A DNA stretch of 44,400 bases, taken from assembly GCA_964534415.1 (NCBI GenBank), contig CAZHOL010000001.1, forward strand, positions 1 through 44,400. The letters run 5' to 3'. Under the pieces are notes generated by a model. That model did not search any database. It saw nothing but the letters and a program-made list of their open reading frames with translations, and had not been told where the DNA came from. Below, one piece after another: positions 15,066 to 23,601 of the stretch. The stretch's first letter is position 1, and each line of letters starts with the position of its first letter. This DNA is from an uncultured Candidatus Saccharibacteria bacterium (GTDB taxonomy: Bacteria; Patescibacteriota; Minisyncoccia; Phycocordibacterales; JAACPR01). The translations under genes were made by a program, and so were the position numbers.

Positions 15066-15078
15066 TACTTAGTCATAT

Positions 15079-15107
15079 TTGCATAATTTAATAAATTGTG
15101 GTATTGT
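15079..15107 (+). promoter_or_regulatory. Putative promoter TTGCAT-17-(TGg)TATTGT
   Basis: TTGCAT 15079-15084, TG 15099-15100, TATTGT 15102-15107. Confidence 0.45.
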
Positions 15108-15148
15108 GTTGTAAGCCAGTTCTAACCCCTAACCTATAGGAGGGCAAC

Positions 15149-15277
15149 ATGCCCTATCATAAATACGAGAAAACAAACCGCAGCACCCCGTTGCGGAAGA
15201 AATTCGAAGCACGACTTGGACTTGCCTGCGTTATCCTTGCAGGTGTCATTTGGGTCGTGAGGTTATGCTTTCGATGA
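15149..15277 (+). CDS. 42-aa tail-anchored small membrane peptide (below the ORF-track cutoff)
   Basis: AGGAGG 15138-15143 lies 5 nt before the ATG. My translation is MPYHKYEKTNRSTPLRKKFEARLGLACVILAGVIWVVRLCFR, with stop TGA at 15275-15277, followed at once by a 10-bp GC hairpin. Confidence 0.6.
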   Translation: MPYHKYEKTNRSTPLRKKFEARLGLACVILAGVIWVVRLCFR

Positions 15278-15280
15278 TTG

Positions 15281-15309
15281 GGCCGGCGCGAAATCGCGCC
15301 GGCCATTTT
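15281..15309 (+). terminator. Intrinsic terminator
   Basis: GGCCGGCGCG (15281-15290) AAAT CGCGCCGGCC (15295-15304) followed by ATTTT. Confidence 0.8.
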
Positions 15310-15311
15310 GC

Positions 15312-15339
15312 TTGCATAATTCTGCAGGTGAGGTATAAT
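15312..15339 (+). promoter_or_regulatory. Putative promoter TTGCAT-16-TATAAT driving the ncRNA candidate
   Basis: TTGCAT 15312-15317 and TATAAT 15334-15339. Confidence 0.6.
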
Positions 15340-15344
15340 AATAG

Positions 15345-15634
15345 TGTTCTTAGATTCATTTGAATCTTCGAACAGTAAGCTGACCGACAATGTCAGGGCG
15401 CTTAATGGGAATAGACGTATAGTCGGCTCTCAGTCGTGGTATTGATCAAGCGCCTTTGGCCACCCGACTTTAACAGTTCATTTTGTTCTTTCGAGCTTCG
15501 GCTCACATCTTCCATGTGGAAGACGCCATTCGTGGCAAAACTTCTTCCTTCGGGGAGATTTCATTCAGCGGGCACCTTCGGGCGCCTGTTTTCATTTTTA
15601 TCACAAAAACCCGCCTAAAAATGGCGGTTTTTTT
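15345..15634 (+). ncRNA. Candidate structured RNA of unknown family (about 250-290 nt)
   Basis: No credible ORF. It has many hand-foldable helices, four UUCG-capped hairpins in 15493-15588 and two terminator-like hairpins with U-runs (15571-15599, 15611-15634). It is flanked by its own promoter and the mraZ promoter. Confidence 0.55.
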
Positions 15635-15661
15635 GATGTGCAAAAATGTGCATAACTTTGT

Positions 15662-15724
15662 TTGAAAGTGTGCAATTGTGGTGTAAAATGGTAGACAAGT
15701 GGGAAGGGGTGGGAATCTGGGAAA
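15662..15724 (+). promoter_or_regulatory. Putative dcw promoter TTGAAA-16-TAAAAT followed by three TGGGAA direct repeats (MraZ-box-like operator)
   Basis: TTGAAA 15662-15667 and TAAAAT 15684-15689. TGGGAA starts at 15700, 15710 and 15718 (GTGGGAAGGG GTGGGAATC TGGGAAA). This resembles the TGGGN repeats with roughly 10-bp periodicity bound by E. coli MraZ. Confidence 0.55.
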
Positions 15725-15739
15725 TTCCAAATAAATACA

Positions 15740-19111: not shown

Positions 19112-20397
19112 CAATGAAAGATTTTCTTAAAAAAATCATAACAATAAAGATCGAGATTATTGCTCGGCTGTTGCTGTTGCGACATAGACCAAAGATTGTG
19201 ATGATTGTTGGCGCGACCGGAAAGACTATCACGAGAGATATGGTGTACGAGGCACTTCGCGACAAATTTTCTGTTAGAAAAAACTTTACCAGAAAAAATG
19301 ATTTGAATTCTATTTTGATGACAATTTTGGGTCGCGAAATTAATTTAGAAGAGATTTGGGATTCGATTCGTGTTTTGTTTTCATGTTTCCTACAGATATT
19401 TTCAAGCAATTATCCGAAATGGCTGGTGATGGAATTCGATGTCAGCCATCCAGGTGATATGAACGTTGCGAAATGGTTAAAGCCAAAAATCGCGATAATA
19501 ACAGCACTTGGTGATGTACCAAATCATGTCGAGTTTTTTGAATCTCCAGAGGAATTAATTGCAGAGCAGACAAAACTGGTTAAATATATTGATTCAGGTG
19601 GTGCGTTAATTTTGAATACTGATGATGAAGCGTCTCGAAAAGTTAAATCTAAATCAAGAGTGAAAGTCTACACTTGTGGGCTAGGTGAAATGGCAGACTT
19701 TATGGCTTCAAATAAATCGGTGGTGTATAACGAAATAAATGTGAATAGGCCTCCGATTGGAATTAACTTCAAACTAAATTATTACGGCAATACGGTGCCG
19801 GTTTCAATAGAAGGAGTGCTCGGCGATCAATACATATATTCCACGATGTTTGCGGTCGCAGTCGGCATGTCGGTTGGAGTTTCAATTGTTGATATCACAA
19901 AAAATATTTCGAGCTATCAGACTTCGCCCGGCCGGCTGAATTTAATCAGGGGAATGCATGCATCAACAATTATTGATGATTCGTATGACGCTTCACCTCT
20001 GGCTATGGCCAAAGCTTTGCGAACTTTATCGGCTTTGCATGTGCATGGTTTGAAAATTGCGGTTCTCGGTGACATGTTGGAGTTGGGGAGATTCTCGAAT
20101 AATGAGCACAAAAAGATTGGTGAGCTGGTGGCGAAATATAAGTTTGATAATTTGGTGACAGTTGGAATTCGCGCTGAGACAATTGCTGAATCTGCATACG
20201 GTGCCGGCGTGCACAAGAAAAAGATTTTTTGCTTCAAAAATAGCGAGCAGGCAATTGATGAAGTTAAAAAGCTGCTAAACAAGGAAAAGGGTAGTGCGAT
20301 TCTCGTAAGTGGCGCCAAGGAGATGGTGATGGAGAAATTAGTGGCAAGTATTGTTGATGTGAAGGTTGATTCTGAGAAAGTTTTGGTGAGAAGATAA
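19108..20397 (+). CDS. murF: UDP-MurNAc-tripeptide--D-Ala-D-Ala ligase
   Basis: Mur ligase P-loop VGATGKT, and DDSYDASP plus VLGDMLELG typical of MurF rather than MurE. ATGA coupling to ftsI. Confidence 0.8.
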   Translation: MTMKDFLKKIITIKIEIIARLLLLRHRPKIVMIVGATGKTITRDMVYEALRDKFSVRKNFTRKNDLNSILMTILGREINLEEIWDSIRVLFSCFLQIFSSNYPKWLVMEFDVSHPGDMNVAKWLKPKIAIITALGDVPNHVEFFESPEELIAEQTKLVKYIDSGGALILNTDDEASRKVKSKSRVKVYTCGLGEMADFMASNKSVVYNEINVNRPPIGINFKLNYYGNTVPVSIEGVLGDQYIYSTMFAVAVGMSVGVSIVDITKNISSYQTSPGRLNLIRGMHASTIIDDSYDASPLAMAKALRTLSALHVHGLKIAVLGDMLELGRFSNNEHKKIGELVAKYKFDNLVTVGIRAETIAESAYGAGVHKKKIFCFKNSEQAIDEVKKLLNKEKGSAILVSGAKEMVMEKLVASIVDVKVDSEKVLVRR

Positions 20398-20405
20398 TTC
20401 TGTTG

Positions 20406-20434
20406 TTGACAACATGTTTCGCAGAGTGTATCCT
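20406..20434 (+). promoter_or_regulatory. Putative promoter TTGACA-17-TATCCT
   Basis: TTGACA 20406-20411 and TATCCT 20429-20434, just after the murF stop. Confidence 0.5.
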
Positions 20435-20440
20435 CTTAGT

Positions 20441-20737
20441 TAATAAGGTTTACCACGGCAGTAACTGGCCGATGTCCTCTGGACATTTGTGGTACATAGA
20501 ACCATAACCTCATGTGCACGGCGAGTGCACAGTTACGAAAGGGTTCGAAGGTGGAAACAGAAATTCACGTTATGTTGTAAGCATTCTTGCTCAACTTCCA
20601 AGTGGGCGAGAATTAACTAACGACAGCAACATGATGTGACTGTGATGTGAGGGCGTCATCCCTTGCGATTTCCCCGAAATGGCAGCGCGCTTGAAGTTCT
20701 CCGGGTGACCGGTTTCTCAAGAAAGCGGGCCTTTTTT
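20441..20737 (+). ncRNA. Candidate structured RNA of unknown family (about 300 nt) upstream of tRNA-Glu
   Basis: No ORF. Nested helices 20447-20503, hairpin 20513-20531, 13-bp long-range helix 20565-20577 / 20627-20639, and a terminator-like stem 20709-20728 followed by T6 at 20732-20737. Confidence 0.5.
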
Positions 20738-20776
20738 ATTTCCCATTTCCAACAAATGTGATAATATCTTTGACAT

Positions 20777-20851
20777 GGCCCTATCGTCTAACGGCTAGGA
20801 CAGTGCCTTCTCAAGGCATAAATCGGGGTTCGATTCCCCGTAGGGTCACCA
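20777..20851 (+). tRNA. tRNA-Glu, anticodon CUC, CCA encoded
   Basis: Cloverleaf folded by hand: acceptor GGCCCTA/TAGGGTC, D stem GTCT/GGAC, anticodon stem GTGCC/GGCAT with loop TTCTCAA, T arm CGGGG-TTCGATT-CCCCG, discriminator A, then CCA. An extended -10 TGtGATAAT lies at 20757-20765. Confidence 0.9.
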
Positions 20852-20919
20852 TTGATCTGTACCCCAAAAAGTGGACACAGATTTTCATAAAAGTTCGCAA
20901 TTTGGTAAAATAGTTTCAT

Positions 20920-21642
20920 ATGAAAAGACAAAAAGGCTTTGCGAGTATTCTCGCTCTGTTATTAGTTCTACTTGTTATTGCTGGTGGCGTCTATTTTTAT
21001 CCTCAGGCTAATAAAGACGAATCAAACGATTCAAATGTCTTCGACGCCGTAGAAAAAGCAAAAGAGGTTGTTGATCGGGCTAATACCCGCTCTGCAGATT
21101 CGATGCAAAATAGTGATGATGAGCAAGAGGTGCGGGTAAAGACTTCTGGAATTAATATAGTTATTCCTGAAGGTGTAGCCGCTAACGATGTGAATGTCGG
21201 AGGCTATACAGGAATTAGATTTTCTTTAGGTCAAAATTATTGGAAGTATTTAGGTAATGACGGAATTGTTACCACCGGTCTTGTGGTTTCTGCGGGATTG
21301 GAAAGCAAAAATGATTCTTCGGGATATTTATGCTCAACTAAAAACTTTAGTAATAGAGACGAGGCGGATTCGAAAATTACGGCAATGATTGACGGTCAGA
21401 ATTTTATAAAATCCACAGGTAGTAATTATGGTATGAATCAGTTTCAGAATAGTGAGAGATATGTTCAGATGCTGAATGAAAATCAGTGTAGAGTTGTTAC
21501 TTTAAGCATAAATGGAGCTAATCCTGAGGCAATTAATTATAGTGAAAGGGAGAAAGAGGAAATAAAGAAAAATAATGAAGTCTTTACTAAATTACTTGAA
21601 ACTGAGAAAGCGAAGATACTTAAAGACATTACGATAGATTAA
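20920..21642 (+). CDS. Hypothetical exported protein with a pilin-like N-terminus lacking Glu5
   Basis: MKRQKGFASILALLLVLLVIAGG followed by a hydrophilic domain. No known motif. Confidence 0.7.
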   Translation: MKRQKGFASILALLLVLLVIAGGVYFYPQANKDESNDSNVFDAVEKAKEVVDRANTRSADSMQNSDDEQEVRVKTSGINIVIPEGVAANDVNVGGYTGIRFSLGQNYWKYLGNDGIVTTGLVVSAGLESKNDSSGYLCSTKNFSNRDEADSKITAMIDGQNFIKSTGSNYGMNQFQNSERYVQMLNENQCRVVTLSINGANPEAINYSEREKEEIKKNNEVFTKLLETEKAKILKDITID

Positions 21643-21677
21643 ACCATACTCAACAATATAAAGTCACCACAAACTTC

Positions 21678-21806
21678 ATGCATAAAATTCCAAACGACTT
21701 CAATCTATTATTGAAATCGAATAGAGACGTCTTGAAGCTTTGGGAAAAGTTACCGCCACTTGTGCGTAACGCAAACTTTTTTCATTTAAAGTATAAAATG
21801 ATATAA
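21678..21806 (+). pseudogene. Possible remnant of a YdeI/OmdA-like gene (42 codons)
   Basis: My translation is MHKIPNDFNLLLKSNRDVLKLWEKLPPLVRNANFFHLKYKMI. IPxDF...LWExLxPLxRN resembles the start of the C-terminal YdeI-type helical domain and then breaks off. It overlaps the next gene's promoter. Confidence 0.25.
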
Positions 21807-21813
21807 TCACTCA

Positions 21814-22071
21814 ATGGAAAAAATATCTCAACTCGAAGCAGAAATCGCCAAAATCAACGAAAGAAACCGCCGAGTCGAAATAGACAAAGCGTGGGAAGTT
21901 AGTTTAATTCGTCGCATCTCCATCATAATTTTGACATACATTGTTGCGGGATCTTGGTTGTGGGTGATTGATGAGAGTTATGTTCTTCTAAAGGCGGTCG
22001 TGCCAGTTCTCGGTTATTTGCTTTCAACTCTTTCTATTCCTCAGATAAAGAGAGTGTGGGTTAAAAAATGA
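21814..22071 (+). CDS. Hypothetical small membrane protein (coiled N-terminus plus 2 TM segments)
   Basis: 85 aa. TGaTATAAT at 21799-21807 lies 6 nt before the ATG with no SD, which is a leaderless-type arrangement. Confidence 0.65.
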   Translation: MEKISQLEAEIAKINERNRRVEIDKAWEVSLIRRISIIILTYIVAGSWLWVIDESYVLLKAVVPVLGYLLSTLSIPQIKRVWVKK

Positions 22072-22107
22072 AATACACTGACGAATTTAATTTCACGACC
22101 TATATTT

Positions 22108-22569
22108 CTAAGCGGTAATTTTTTGTCTAATGTATTTTTTAAATTCTAGCTTGTTTGTGAATAGAGGAATACTGTATTTTTGGCATACAATTTCTACATT
22201 TCCTTTTCTCCAGAAACCCTCTGGGCAACAGACAATTAGTTTTCCAGAACTTGCGTATAATCCCAACTCCAGCAATGATATCGGAGATTTTGTCGCCGGA
22301 TCAAAATACATTACAATATAATCTGAAATGTCTTGCGCGTTCAATTCCCATGTAACTTGTTCATAAAAATTTGGATTGTCGATACTCTGTTTCCATGAAC
22401 TGTCCCAATTATCTCGCCTTGGACTAAGAATGAGCACATCAGAATCATTTAACTCTCGTTCAAATTCTTGCTGCCAATTTTCTGCGATGCCCATCTCTAT
22501 GCTTCCAGCAAGAAATATAGTAACTTTTGATTCCTTAATTATTTTGTTTGGTGCTTTTATTATCTTCAT
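22108..22569 (-). CDS. Nucleoside 2-deoxyribosyltransferase-like protein
   Basis: VTIFLAGSIEMGIAENWQ, SPRRDNWDSSW, SPISLLELGL and CCPEGFWRKGNVEIV match my recollection of the Nuc_deoxyri_tr2-type family. Start taken at MKIIK (22569). Confidence 0.7.
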   Translation of the reverse strand: MKIIKAPNKIIKESKVTIFLAGSIEMGIAENWQQEFERELNDSDVLILSPRRDNWDSSWKQSIDNPNFYEQVTWELNAQDISDYIVMYFDPATKSPISLLELGLYASSGKLIVCCPEGFWRKGNVEIVCQKYSIPLFTNKLEFKKYIRQKITA

Positions 22570-22714
22570 GGTAATTATATTATAATATAACATCATATTA
22601 ATAAATGTTAAACTATATTAATGAATTGTGCATACTGTGAAATTGAAGACATAAAGAAACGTGAGATACTGGCGATGATTTGAATTACGAAAAGTTTTTT
22701 GTAATAATTAATGC

Positions 22715-23098
22715 ATGATTAGACTAATAGAAAACAATTTAACAGGGGAATTTAGAGGAGAAAAGCAAGAACAAATTCAAAAACGTCGTTCTGAATTAGA
22801 TGCAGACGGTAATTTAGAGAATGATGATTTGGAATCTTTGCTATATTATGAGTTTACAGAAGATGAGCTGAGTTTAGAAGAGCAGTTAACAATGCATTAC
22901 TTAAAACTTAAATCTAAAAAACCAAAGGAAGCAGATGTAATGTTAGAGGAACTAAGAGACGTTGGAGAATATGTTGCAACCAAGAATGGGAATGAAAAAA
23001 TTGTATTTTCTGATGATATAAATAAATTTTGTGAAGTTCTTTACAAATTTATGCCACATTTCAAAATCGTGCACGAAGGTAAAGAGTATAAGATGTAA
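22715..23098 (+). CDS. Hypothetical acidic protein
   Basis: 127 aa, rich in D/E, ending 2 nt before the Nudix gene start. No known motif. Confidence 0.6.
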   Translation: MIRLIENNLTGEFRGEKQEQIQKRRSELDADGNLENDDLESLLYYEFTEDELSLEEQLTMHYLKLKSKKPKEADVMLEELRDVGEYVATKNGNEKIVFSDDINKFCEVLYKFMPHFKIVHEGKEYKM

Positions 23099-23100
23099 AA

Positions 23101-23601
23101 ATGAACCTCACCTCCACCTACATCAATCGCGCCGGCGAAACTTTCCCTGTGAAATATTACGAAGGTATCGAACCAACAGAAAATCTGGAAGGGAAAGTTC
23201 TTCATTCGGTGCACGCATTTTGCTTTTACAATGGTAAAATGGTTTTGATTAATCATCGGGGTCGGGCGTGGCAACCGCCGGGAGGGCATATCGAGCCGGG
23301 TGAAAACTACACCGACGCCTGCATTCGCGAAGTTCACGAAGAAACCAATATGAAAGTTCTGCATCAGGAATTGATCGGCTTTCAAGATGTCTATGAGCCG
23401 AATCAAATCACTCGGCAAATTCGCATGTTTTGCATTGTCGAACCATATGGCCCATTCGTCTCCGACCCCGACGGCGACGTAACCGAAATTCGCCTAATTG
23501 ATCCCGCAGATGTCACGAAATACTTTAACTGGCGCGAGATAGGTGCGAGGGTGATGGAGAGGGCTTTGCAATTATTAAAATCTGCTATAATTCAAGAATG
23601 A
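23101..23601 (+). CDS. NUDIX hydrolase
   Basis: Nudix box GGHIEPGENYTDACIREVHEETN (GX5EX7REUXEEXG-like). Confidence 0.88.
   Translation: MNLTSTYINRAGETFPVKYYEGIEPTENLEGKVLHSVHAFCFYNGKMVLINHRGRAWQPPGGHIEPGENYTDACIREVHEETNMKVLHQELIGFQDVYEPNQITRQIRMFCIVEPYGPFVSDPDGDVTEIRLIDPADVTKYFNWREIGARVMERALQLLKSAIIQE

Follow-up and report, generated by a model that had tools for sequence, protein, structure and literature searches.

A probable structured small RNA gene (~297 nt) in the murF/tRNA-Glu spacer of an uncultured Saccharibacteria bacterium

The + strand segment 20441-20737 of the window, by which is meant the whole 44,400-nt stretch of DNA that was analysed, is most probably a real structured RNA gene. 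Overall, it is likely to represent an independently transcribed, structurally constrained, lineage-restricted, and dispensable small RNA gene of ~297 nt, the product of which may act in trans. The RNA family is new, although its kind, the orphan structured small RNA gene, is already known.

Locus, ends, and predicted fold

The window is contig C1 of a genome of 549,818 bases in 43 contigs (93.7% complete). The cell-wall and division (dcw) genes mraZ, rsmH, ftsI, and murF lie directly upstream of the unit, with the murF stop at 20397, and a tRNA-Glu(CTC) gene follows on the same strand at 20777-20851, ~40 nt past the unit's end. Between murF and tRNA-Glu, the unit spans 20406-20737 from promoter to terminator. 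A sigma-70-type promoter, TTGACA-17-TATCCT, occupies 20406-20434 of the + strand (hexamers 20406-11 and 20429-34), directly after the murF stop as the first-pass annotation had it; with a score of 10/12 it ranks first among five promoter-like sites within 20000-21200 (shuffle mean 2.3). The start of the predicted RNA (20441-20737, + strand, ~297 nt) was set 7 nt past the -10 box by inference, and its end is the end of the T6 run. Earlier descriptions of the unit as lacking an open reading frame and as more GC-rich than its surroundings were both borne out: the longest ORF inside it is 43 aa, with ORFs of 32-43 aa on both strands, and 20441-20737 has a GC fraction of 0.481, compared with 0.397 genome-wide.

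Minimum-energy folding of 20441-20737, for which the window sequence alone was used and pair probabilities were computed besides, gave -102.7 kcal/mol for the + strand (z -3.95), a value equalled by 0 of 100 shuffles; the - strand gave a z of -1.76 and was equalled by 4 of 100. The minimum-energy fold is divided into several domains, with no closing stem between the two ends of the predicted RNA. All sequence elements named in the first-pass annotation are present where it had placed them, and its hand-drawn pairings were retained in some cases and replaced in others. The predicted 5' domain (20451-20494, + strand) is a stem, 20451-56/20489-94, that carries hairpins at 20457-70 and 20471-87, with probabilities of 0.6-1.0; within it the proposed pairings TACCAC/GTGGTA (0.6-0.8) and ATGTCC/GGACAT (~1.0) are recovered. 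A further pairing drawn there, GGTT/AACC, reaches a probability of 0.09, and AACC is taken up instead by a GAACC/GGTTC stem (20499-503/20542-46; 0.72). This stem is the outer part of the second domain (20499-20546, + strand) and encloses the 7-bp hairpin TGTGCAC/GTGCACA (20513-19/20525-31), which is predicted at ~1.0 and had been recognized by hand. An unpaired junction follows at 20535-20568 (+ strand).

The long rod (20565-20639, + strand), taken from the minimum-energy fold and the pair probabilities, comprises a 14-bp helix, 20565-78/20626-39, and an 11-bp helix, 20583-93/20603-13, and in the minimum-energy fold it contains a 4 x 12 internal loop. The 13-bp long-range helix described earlier, 20565-77/20627-39, has a probability of ~1.0. 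The AGCA/TGCT pairing that it was said to enclose has a probability of 0.00 and gives way to the 11-bp helix, which is backed by the natural variation described below. A hairpin with the arms GUGAGGG/CCCUUGC is predicted at 20647-20666 (+ strand; pair probability ~0.45). The predicted terminator (20676-20737, + strand) is a long imperfect stem-loop with a GUGA loop in the minimum-energy fold, in which CUUGA/UCAAG pairs at 0.9, followed by the T6 run at 20732-37. A shorter terminator stem had been assigned to 20709-28; it holds a G-G mismatch and has a probability of 0.05, and it is the longer stem, 20686-20727, that precedes T6. The 3' end of the unit was left unflagged by a simple terminator scan.

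Natural variants and expression

The full stretch was found in four runs of one study only, possibly the one from which this DNA came, and parts of it were found in nine other studies. For the variants, four runs, all of them made up of assembled contigs, were compared at a likeness of at least 80%; studies P3, P4, P6, P9, and P10, with word shares of 0.06-0.39, were excluded from the variant evidence. In run X5 (freshwater), 20468-20618 is identical to the window. Runs X13 (soil) and X16 (a wastewater metatranscriptome) contain one common variant that is ~93% identical, and X11 (wastewater, probably DNA) contains a more distant relative of the unit.

The changes listed for X11 comprise 13 substitutions and 6 indels in 20400-20444, 5 substitutions in 20743-20772, and, in the covered RNA body (20446-20510 and 20614-20737), a single change at 20667, with 7 of the 20 substitutions of the first X11 contig unlisted, a few of which could sit in the RNA body. 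The conserved block thus runs from ~20446 to before 20743, i.e. from the inferred start to the T-run. As read from the variant table, the TTGACA hexamer survives the listed deletions at 20400, 20405, and 20407. Contigs from X11 and X13 bridge murF to the RNA and the RNA to the tRNA, with the gene order kept.

The substitutions of X16, 17 of 18 of which are listed, were scored on the fold predicted from the window alone. Twelve of them touch 10 predicted pairs, of which 9 stay standard and 1 (20585-20611) breaks. Both sides are changed with pairing kept at 20583/20613 and 20584/20612, and one-sided changes that remain paired are found in the long rod at 20569, 20572, 20591, 20607, and 20634. 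In hairpin 20513-31, the flanks of which vary more than any other part of the RNA, A>G at 20529 retains pairing as U-G, and T>C at 20648 converts a U-G pair to C-G in hairpin 20647-66. When the X16 changes were placed at random, a mean of 5.0 pairs were broken; with the paired/unpaired class of each site fixed, the probability of breaking at most one was 0.0009, and for at least two compensated pairs random placement gave P 0.013. Seven X16 pairs switch between G-U and Watson-Crick, each by a one-sided change, and these switches are compatible with the + strand alone. Drawn from one variant lineage (X13/X16) and few events, these comparisons indicate that the secondary structure of the unit is maintained by natural selection (P about 0.001).

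The pairs tested by variation lie outside two invariant regions, namely the 5' domain, in which zero changes are listed in X11, X13, and X16, and the junction 20535-68, in which no substitution is listed in X16, X13, or X5 (17 of 18 being listed for X16). Conservation and covariation in relatives had been named in the first-pass annotation as a check on the RNA, and the outcome was divided: close metagenome relatives keep both the RNA and its pairs, whereas no homologue was found in the 32 other genomes of the family. A loop-to-junction pseudoknot between 20461-67 and 20530-36, 7 nt by eye, was also considered and rejected. Two of its pairs compete with hairpin 20513-31, the 5 nt left are no longer than chance complements elsewhere in the RNA, and the pairing is disrupted by X16 changes at 20531-34.

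The RNA library of X16 yielded one 274-nt contig from the ~93%-identical relative, covering 20454-20708 and carrying 21 additional letters, which read as the terminator stem with two differences and reach about 20728. Coverage of murF and of both spacers in this library is zero. RNA-seq had been put forward earlier for defining the ends of the transcript; this one assembled contig matches the predicted transcript, and its ends and strand cannot be read from contigs. Coming from one study in which DNA carry-over is possible, it is a weak hint of a discrete transcript.

Known RNA families and related genomes

The unit falls in no described RNA family. At gathering thresholds, Rfam identified only tRNA in the whole window, and a search of 20300-20900 with all 4227 Rfam models at E<=10 returned, apart from tRNA, only matches at chance level that lie outside the RNA body, in keeping with the earlier description of an unassigned RNA distinct from RNase P RNA, tmRNA, and SRP RNA. 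RNase P RNA (RF00010), present once per genome, has no match in 20300-20900 at E<=10, and the genome's copy sits at C12:11216-11534 (116.3 bits). The genome's tmRNA (RF00023), a molecule with tRNA-like ends and a tag reading frame, is located at C6:12653-13030 (113.5 bits); none was found in the window by ARAGORN, and Rfam was negative for it at the unit. SRP RNA (RF00169 and RF01854), the conserved domain IV hairpin of which is bound by the Ffh M domain, has no match at the unit or genome-wide, even at E<=10, and because neither SRP RNA nor Ffh was found, the unit is not considered a hidden SRP RNA. None of the papers listed by full-text literature searches describes such an RNA, nor did these searches turn up regulatory or structural RNAs of CPR bacteria other than the universal ones.

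Compared with known systems, the unit is like other orphan structured small RNA genes in its own promoter, intrinsic terminator, lack of an ORF, GC content above that of an AT-rich genome, strong fold, and pair-keeping substitutions. It is unlike them in its distribution, which is one species group, and in its length, ~297 nt being long for a base-pairing small RNA, with no seed or target found. 6S RNA typically has a closing stem formed from both ends and a large central bubble. Like 6S RNA (RF00013), the unit is regarded as stable, non-coding, and non-essential, measures a few hundred bases, and contains a long helical rod, but its ends are unpaired and its rod has the 4 x 12 internal loop and no large central bubble; the 6S model was undetected at the unit and across the genome. 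GOLLD and ROOL often adjoin tRNA genes and are roughly 400-800 nt in size. Like GOLLD (RF01998) and ROOL (RF03087), the unit is non-coding, has multiple domains, and adjoins a tRNA gene, but it is ~300 nt long, gives no match to either model in 20300-20900 at E<=10, and has no phage context that could be found; its tRNA-adjacent position is all that backs the comparison drawn in the first-pass annotation.

As a separate observation, the SRP system as a whole could not be found. Of 41 genomes from the family and order, none gave a match to RF00169 or to the Ffh M domain (PF02978); the genome that contains the window yielded neither RF00169 nor RF01854 at E<=10, and no SRP54 GTPase domain (PF00448). 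The NCBIfam ffh model (TIGR00959) matched 0 of 5 near-complete genomes. In the same SRP searches, control genomes were positive in 12-14 of 14. The SRP genes mentioned in PMC10768705, where they appear in comparisons with XH001n, carry APY09_ locus tags, which we take to be those of the host in that paper. No paper on SRP absence was found among the top literature matches listed. If true, the lack of SRP throughout an order would be a notable finding.

MurF turned up in 40 of 41 genomes, with an identity of only 51% inside the genus itself; at such distances, non-coding DNA would not be expected to align between these genomes. BLAST searches of 60 relatives, 400 class genomes, and the 33 family genomes gave no real homologue of the RNA; matches elsewhere, 19-55 nt in length with E values of 3e-5 to 1e-2 per genome, are scattered over the query and are read as chance. 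A covariance model of the 151-nt core, R1, was built from the window sequence alone. It had 0 matches at E<=10 in 27 murF loci, and over the 33 family genomes the window itself was its sole match. Exact 22- and 24-nt patterns from the invariant parts occurred 0 times in genome_contigs and 0 times in viral_contigs.

A murF/tRNA-Glu unit of ~340 nt was found in another genome of the same genus (G001, locus L011, 1095-1436, - strand), with a fold z of -4.18 and an end formed by a hairpin and a T-run. Rfam gave nothing for this unit at E<=0.1, and the family yielded no homologue of it. Homology between it and the window RNA was rejected: the global alignment scored 73.5 against 75.2 +/- 7.2 for shuffles, R1 gave no match at E<=10, and motifs shared by eye failed. 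It seems improbable that the murF/tRNA-Glu site of the genus holds a fast-evolving class of structured RNAs of 300-340 nt in which position is kept and sequence is not. If it did, the window RNA would be its first representative to show signs of selection on structure, and the role of the class could tie to epibiotic, reduced-genome life, e.g. as a ribozyme or protein scaffold.

Two further observations concern other spacers. Long, near-perfect inverted repeats, unlike the RNA of the window, were seen by eye in the murF-tRNA-Glu spacers of L014, L016, and L025, with outer stems of ~20 bp enclosing 60-110 nt; two of these genomes belong to the family and one to another family of the order. In the window, another unit without an ORF (~290 nt) precedes mraZ at 15311-15635, in a gap (15066-15739) with a GC fraction of 0.44. 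By eye it has a promoter-like site and hairpins followed by T-runs, and a small ORF with a ribosome-binding site begins near 15149. The best Rfam matches of this unit (E>=0.086) do not rise above chance, R1 has no match to it, and it is probably the "first" unassigned RNA of the earlier reader.

A strain without the unit, competing explanations, and proposed role

The single metagenome locus recovered with MurF, L040, has no copy of the unit at this site. It is 97.2% identical to the window over the 1850 nt up to 20388 and 98.9% identical again from 20757 through the tRNA, with ~40 nt between these flanks against ~370 in the window. By alignment and blastn, the absent segment corresponds to 20398-20745, the right limit of ~20745 having been set by eye. 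As murF DNA that is 97% identical occurs without the unit, the unit is dispensable and not essential. Its absence from L040 would most simply be explained by a deletion in that line, since more diverged relatives retain the RNA at the same site.

The unit could be a cis element of the dcw operon, i.e. a structured 3' UTR or terminator of murF that stabilises or ends the mraZ-to-murF transcript. mraZ, rsmH, ftsI, and murF are directly upstream, and no terminator was detected between the murF stop (20397) and the unit, so murF transcripts should enter it and stop at T6. Small RNAs derived from 3' UTRs are similarly placed directly behind a coding gene, with no terminator between and one terminator common to both; the unit differs from them in its own strong promoter-like site and in a neighbour gene that does without it in L040. 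A cis role is nevertheless unlikely, given the 10/12 promoter right behind the stop codon, the 300 constrained bases, which far exceed the needs of a terminator, and the ~40 nt with which L040 manages; the X16 RNA contig on the unit and none on murF is a weaker point in the same direction.

The unit could also be what remains of a mobile or integrated element next to a tRNA gene, with no present function and a fold that is a relic or accident. Presence of the unit differs between 97%-identical strains, as does the DNA beyond tRNA-Glu (20850-23100), and in the 10 of 28 loci, window included, where murF is followed by tRNA-Glu, spacers of 56-635 nt with unrelated contents are seen. Against this, no integrase, transposase, or defence gene was found near the unit and no direct or inverted repeats flank it; BLAST and R1 found no second copy in its own genome, and phages, plasmids, and viral contigs contain no match. 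The body of the RNA is also conserved while its flanks diverge, and its pairs are kept, which would not be seen in a decaying relic. Taken together, we regard a mobile leftover as quite improbable.

The swapped DNA 3' of tRNA-Glu was described in its own right. Window positions 20850-23100 encode proteins of 240 and 85 aa, a nucleoside deoxyribosyltransferase-like protein (PF15891, E 1.8e-34), and a protein of 127 aa, and the corresponding ~650 nt of L040 (1985-2642) contain an acyl-carrier-like ORF and a MazG-like ORF; the two sequences rejoin at a NUDIX gene at 23101. The N terminus of the 240-aa protein (20920-21639) resembles a type IV pilin signal by eye, with basic residues, Gly-Phe, and a hydrophobic helix, and the protein has no Pfam, PHROG, or PADLOC match. 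Among five tRNA-side proteins of the window and two of L040, the sole PADLOC match was a weak one of the NUDIX protein to PDC-S07. PHROG matches of the tRNA-side proteins were to nucleotide-metabolism, NUDIX, acyl carrier, DNA-binding, and unknown-function families, and the NUDIX protein also matches one weak portal-protein family.

A regulatory leader of tRNA-Glu, in which a conditional terminator and read-through would couple the RNA to tRNA expression, is very unlikely. The tRNA gene does begin ~40 nt past the end of the unit in the same orientation, and the RNA-then-tRNA order is maintained in the X11 and X13 contigs. The tRNA, however, has a promoter region of its own, which L040 keeps almost unaltered despite lacking the unit, Rfam gives no match to a T-box or other leader, and an unsystematic look found no alternative antiterminator pairing. 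T-box leaders (RF00230), which have a specifier loop and a T-box sequence, are comparable in their ~300 nt, several stems, terminator end, and link by position to a tRNA, but the unit precedes a tRNA-Glu gene rather than an aminoacyl-tRNA synthetase or amino-acid gene, and a T-box sequence is absent by eye. A small protein gene, e.g. a type I toxin, with RNA structure secondary, is hardly credible despite ORFs of 32-43 aa on both strands, as the X16 substitutions show no codon periodicity (7/5/5 by codon position, hand count) and are accompanied by a 2-nt deletion, which argues that the unit is non-coding, and as seven pairs alternate between G-U and Watson-Crick.

The preferred explanation remains a small RNA gene in its own right. 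A ~297-nt RNA would be transcribed with a promoter and a terminator of its own, and its occurrence would be restricted to a single species group of a bacterium with a tiny genome. It may act in trans as a folded molecule that binds a protein or small ligand, and not through long antisense pairing; given a real gene, this mode of action is put forward tentatively. It is favoured because constraint spans the rod helices, the invariant junction, and the 5' domain and not one short seed, and because complementarity to translation start regions is not above that of shuffles. In the latter comparison, a weak test, five unpaired segments were matched against 599 crude translation start regions, and the best duplexes were no better than those of shuffled segments. 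No indication of a partner, target, or ligand was found.

The finding is a narrow one, made in one species group. Within it, an RNA of 300 bases would be under structural selection in a 0.55-Mb genome, where little spare DNA is expected, and its loss from a sister strain would mean that the gain and loss of new RNA genes goes on even where genome reduction is extreme.
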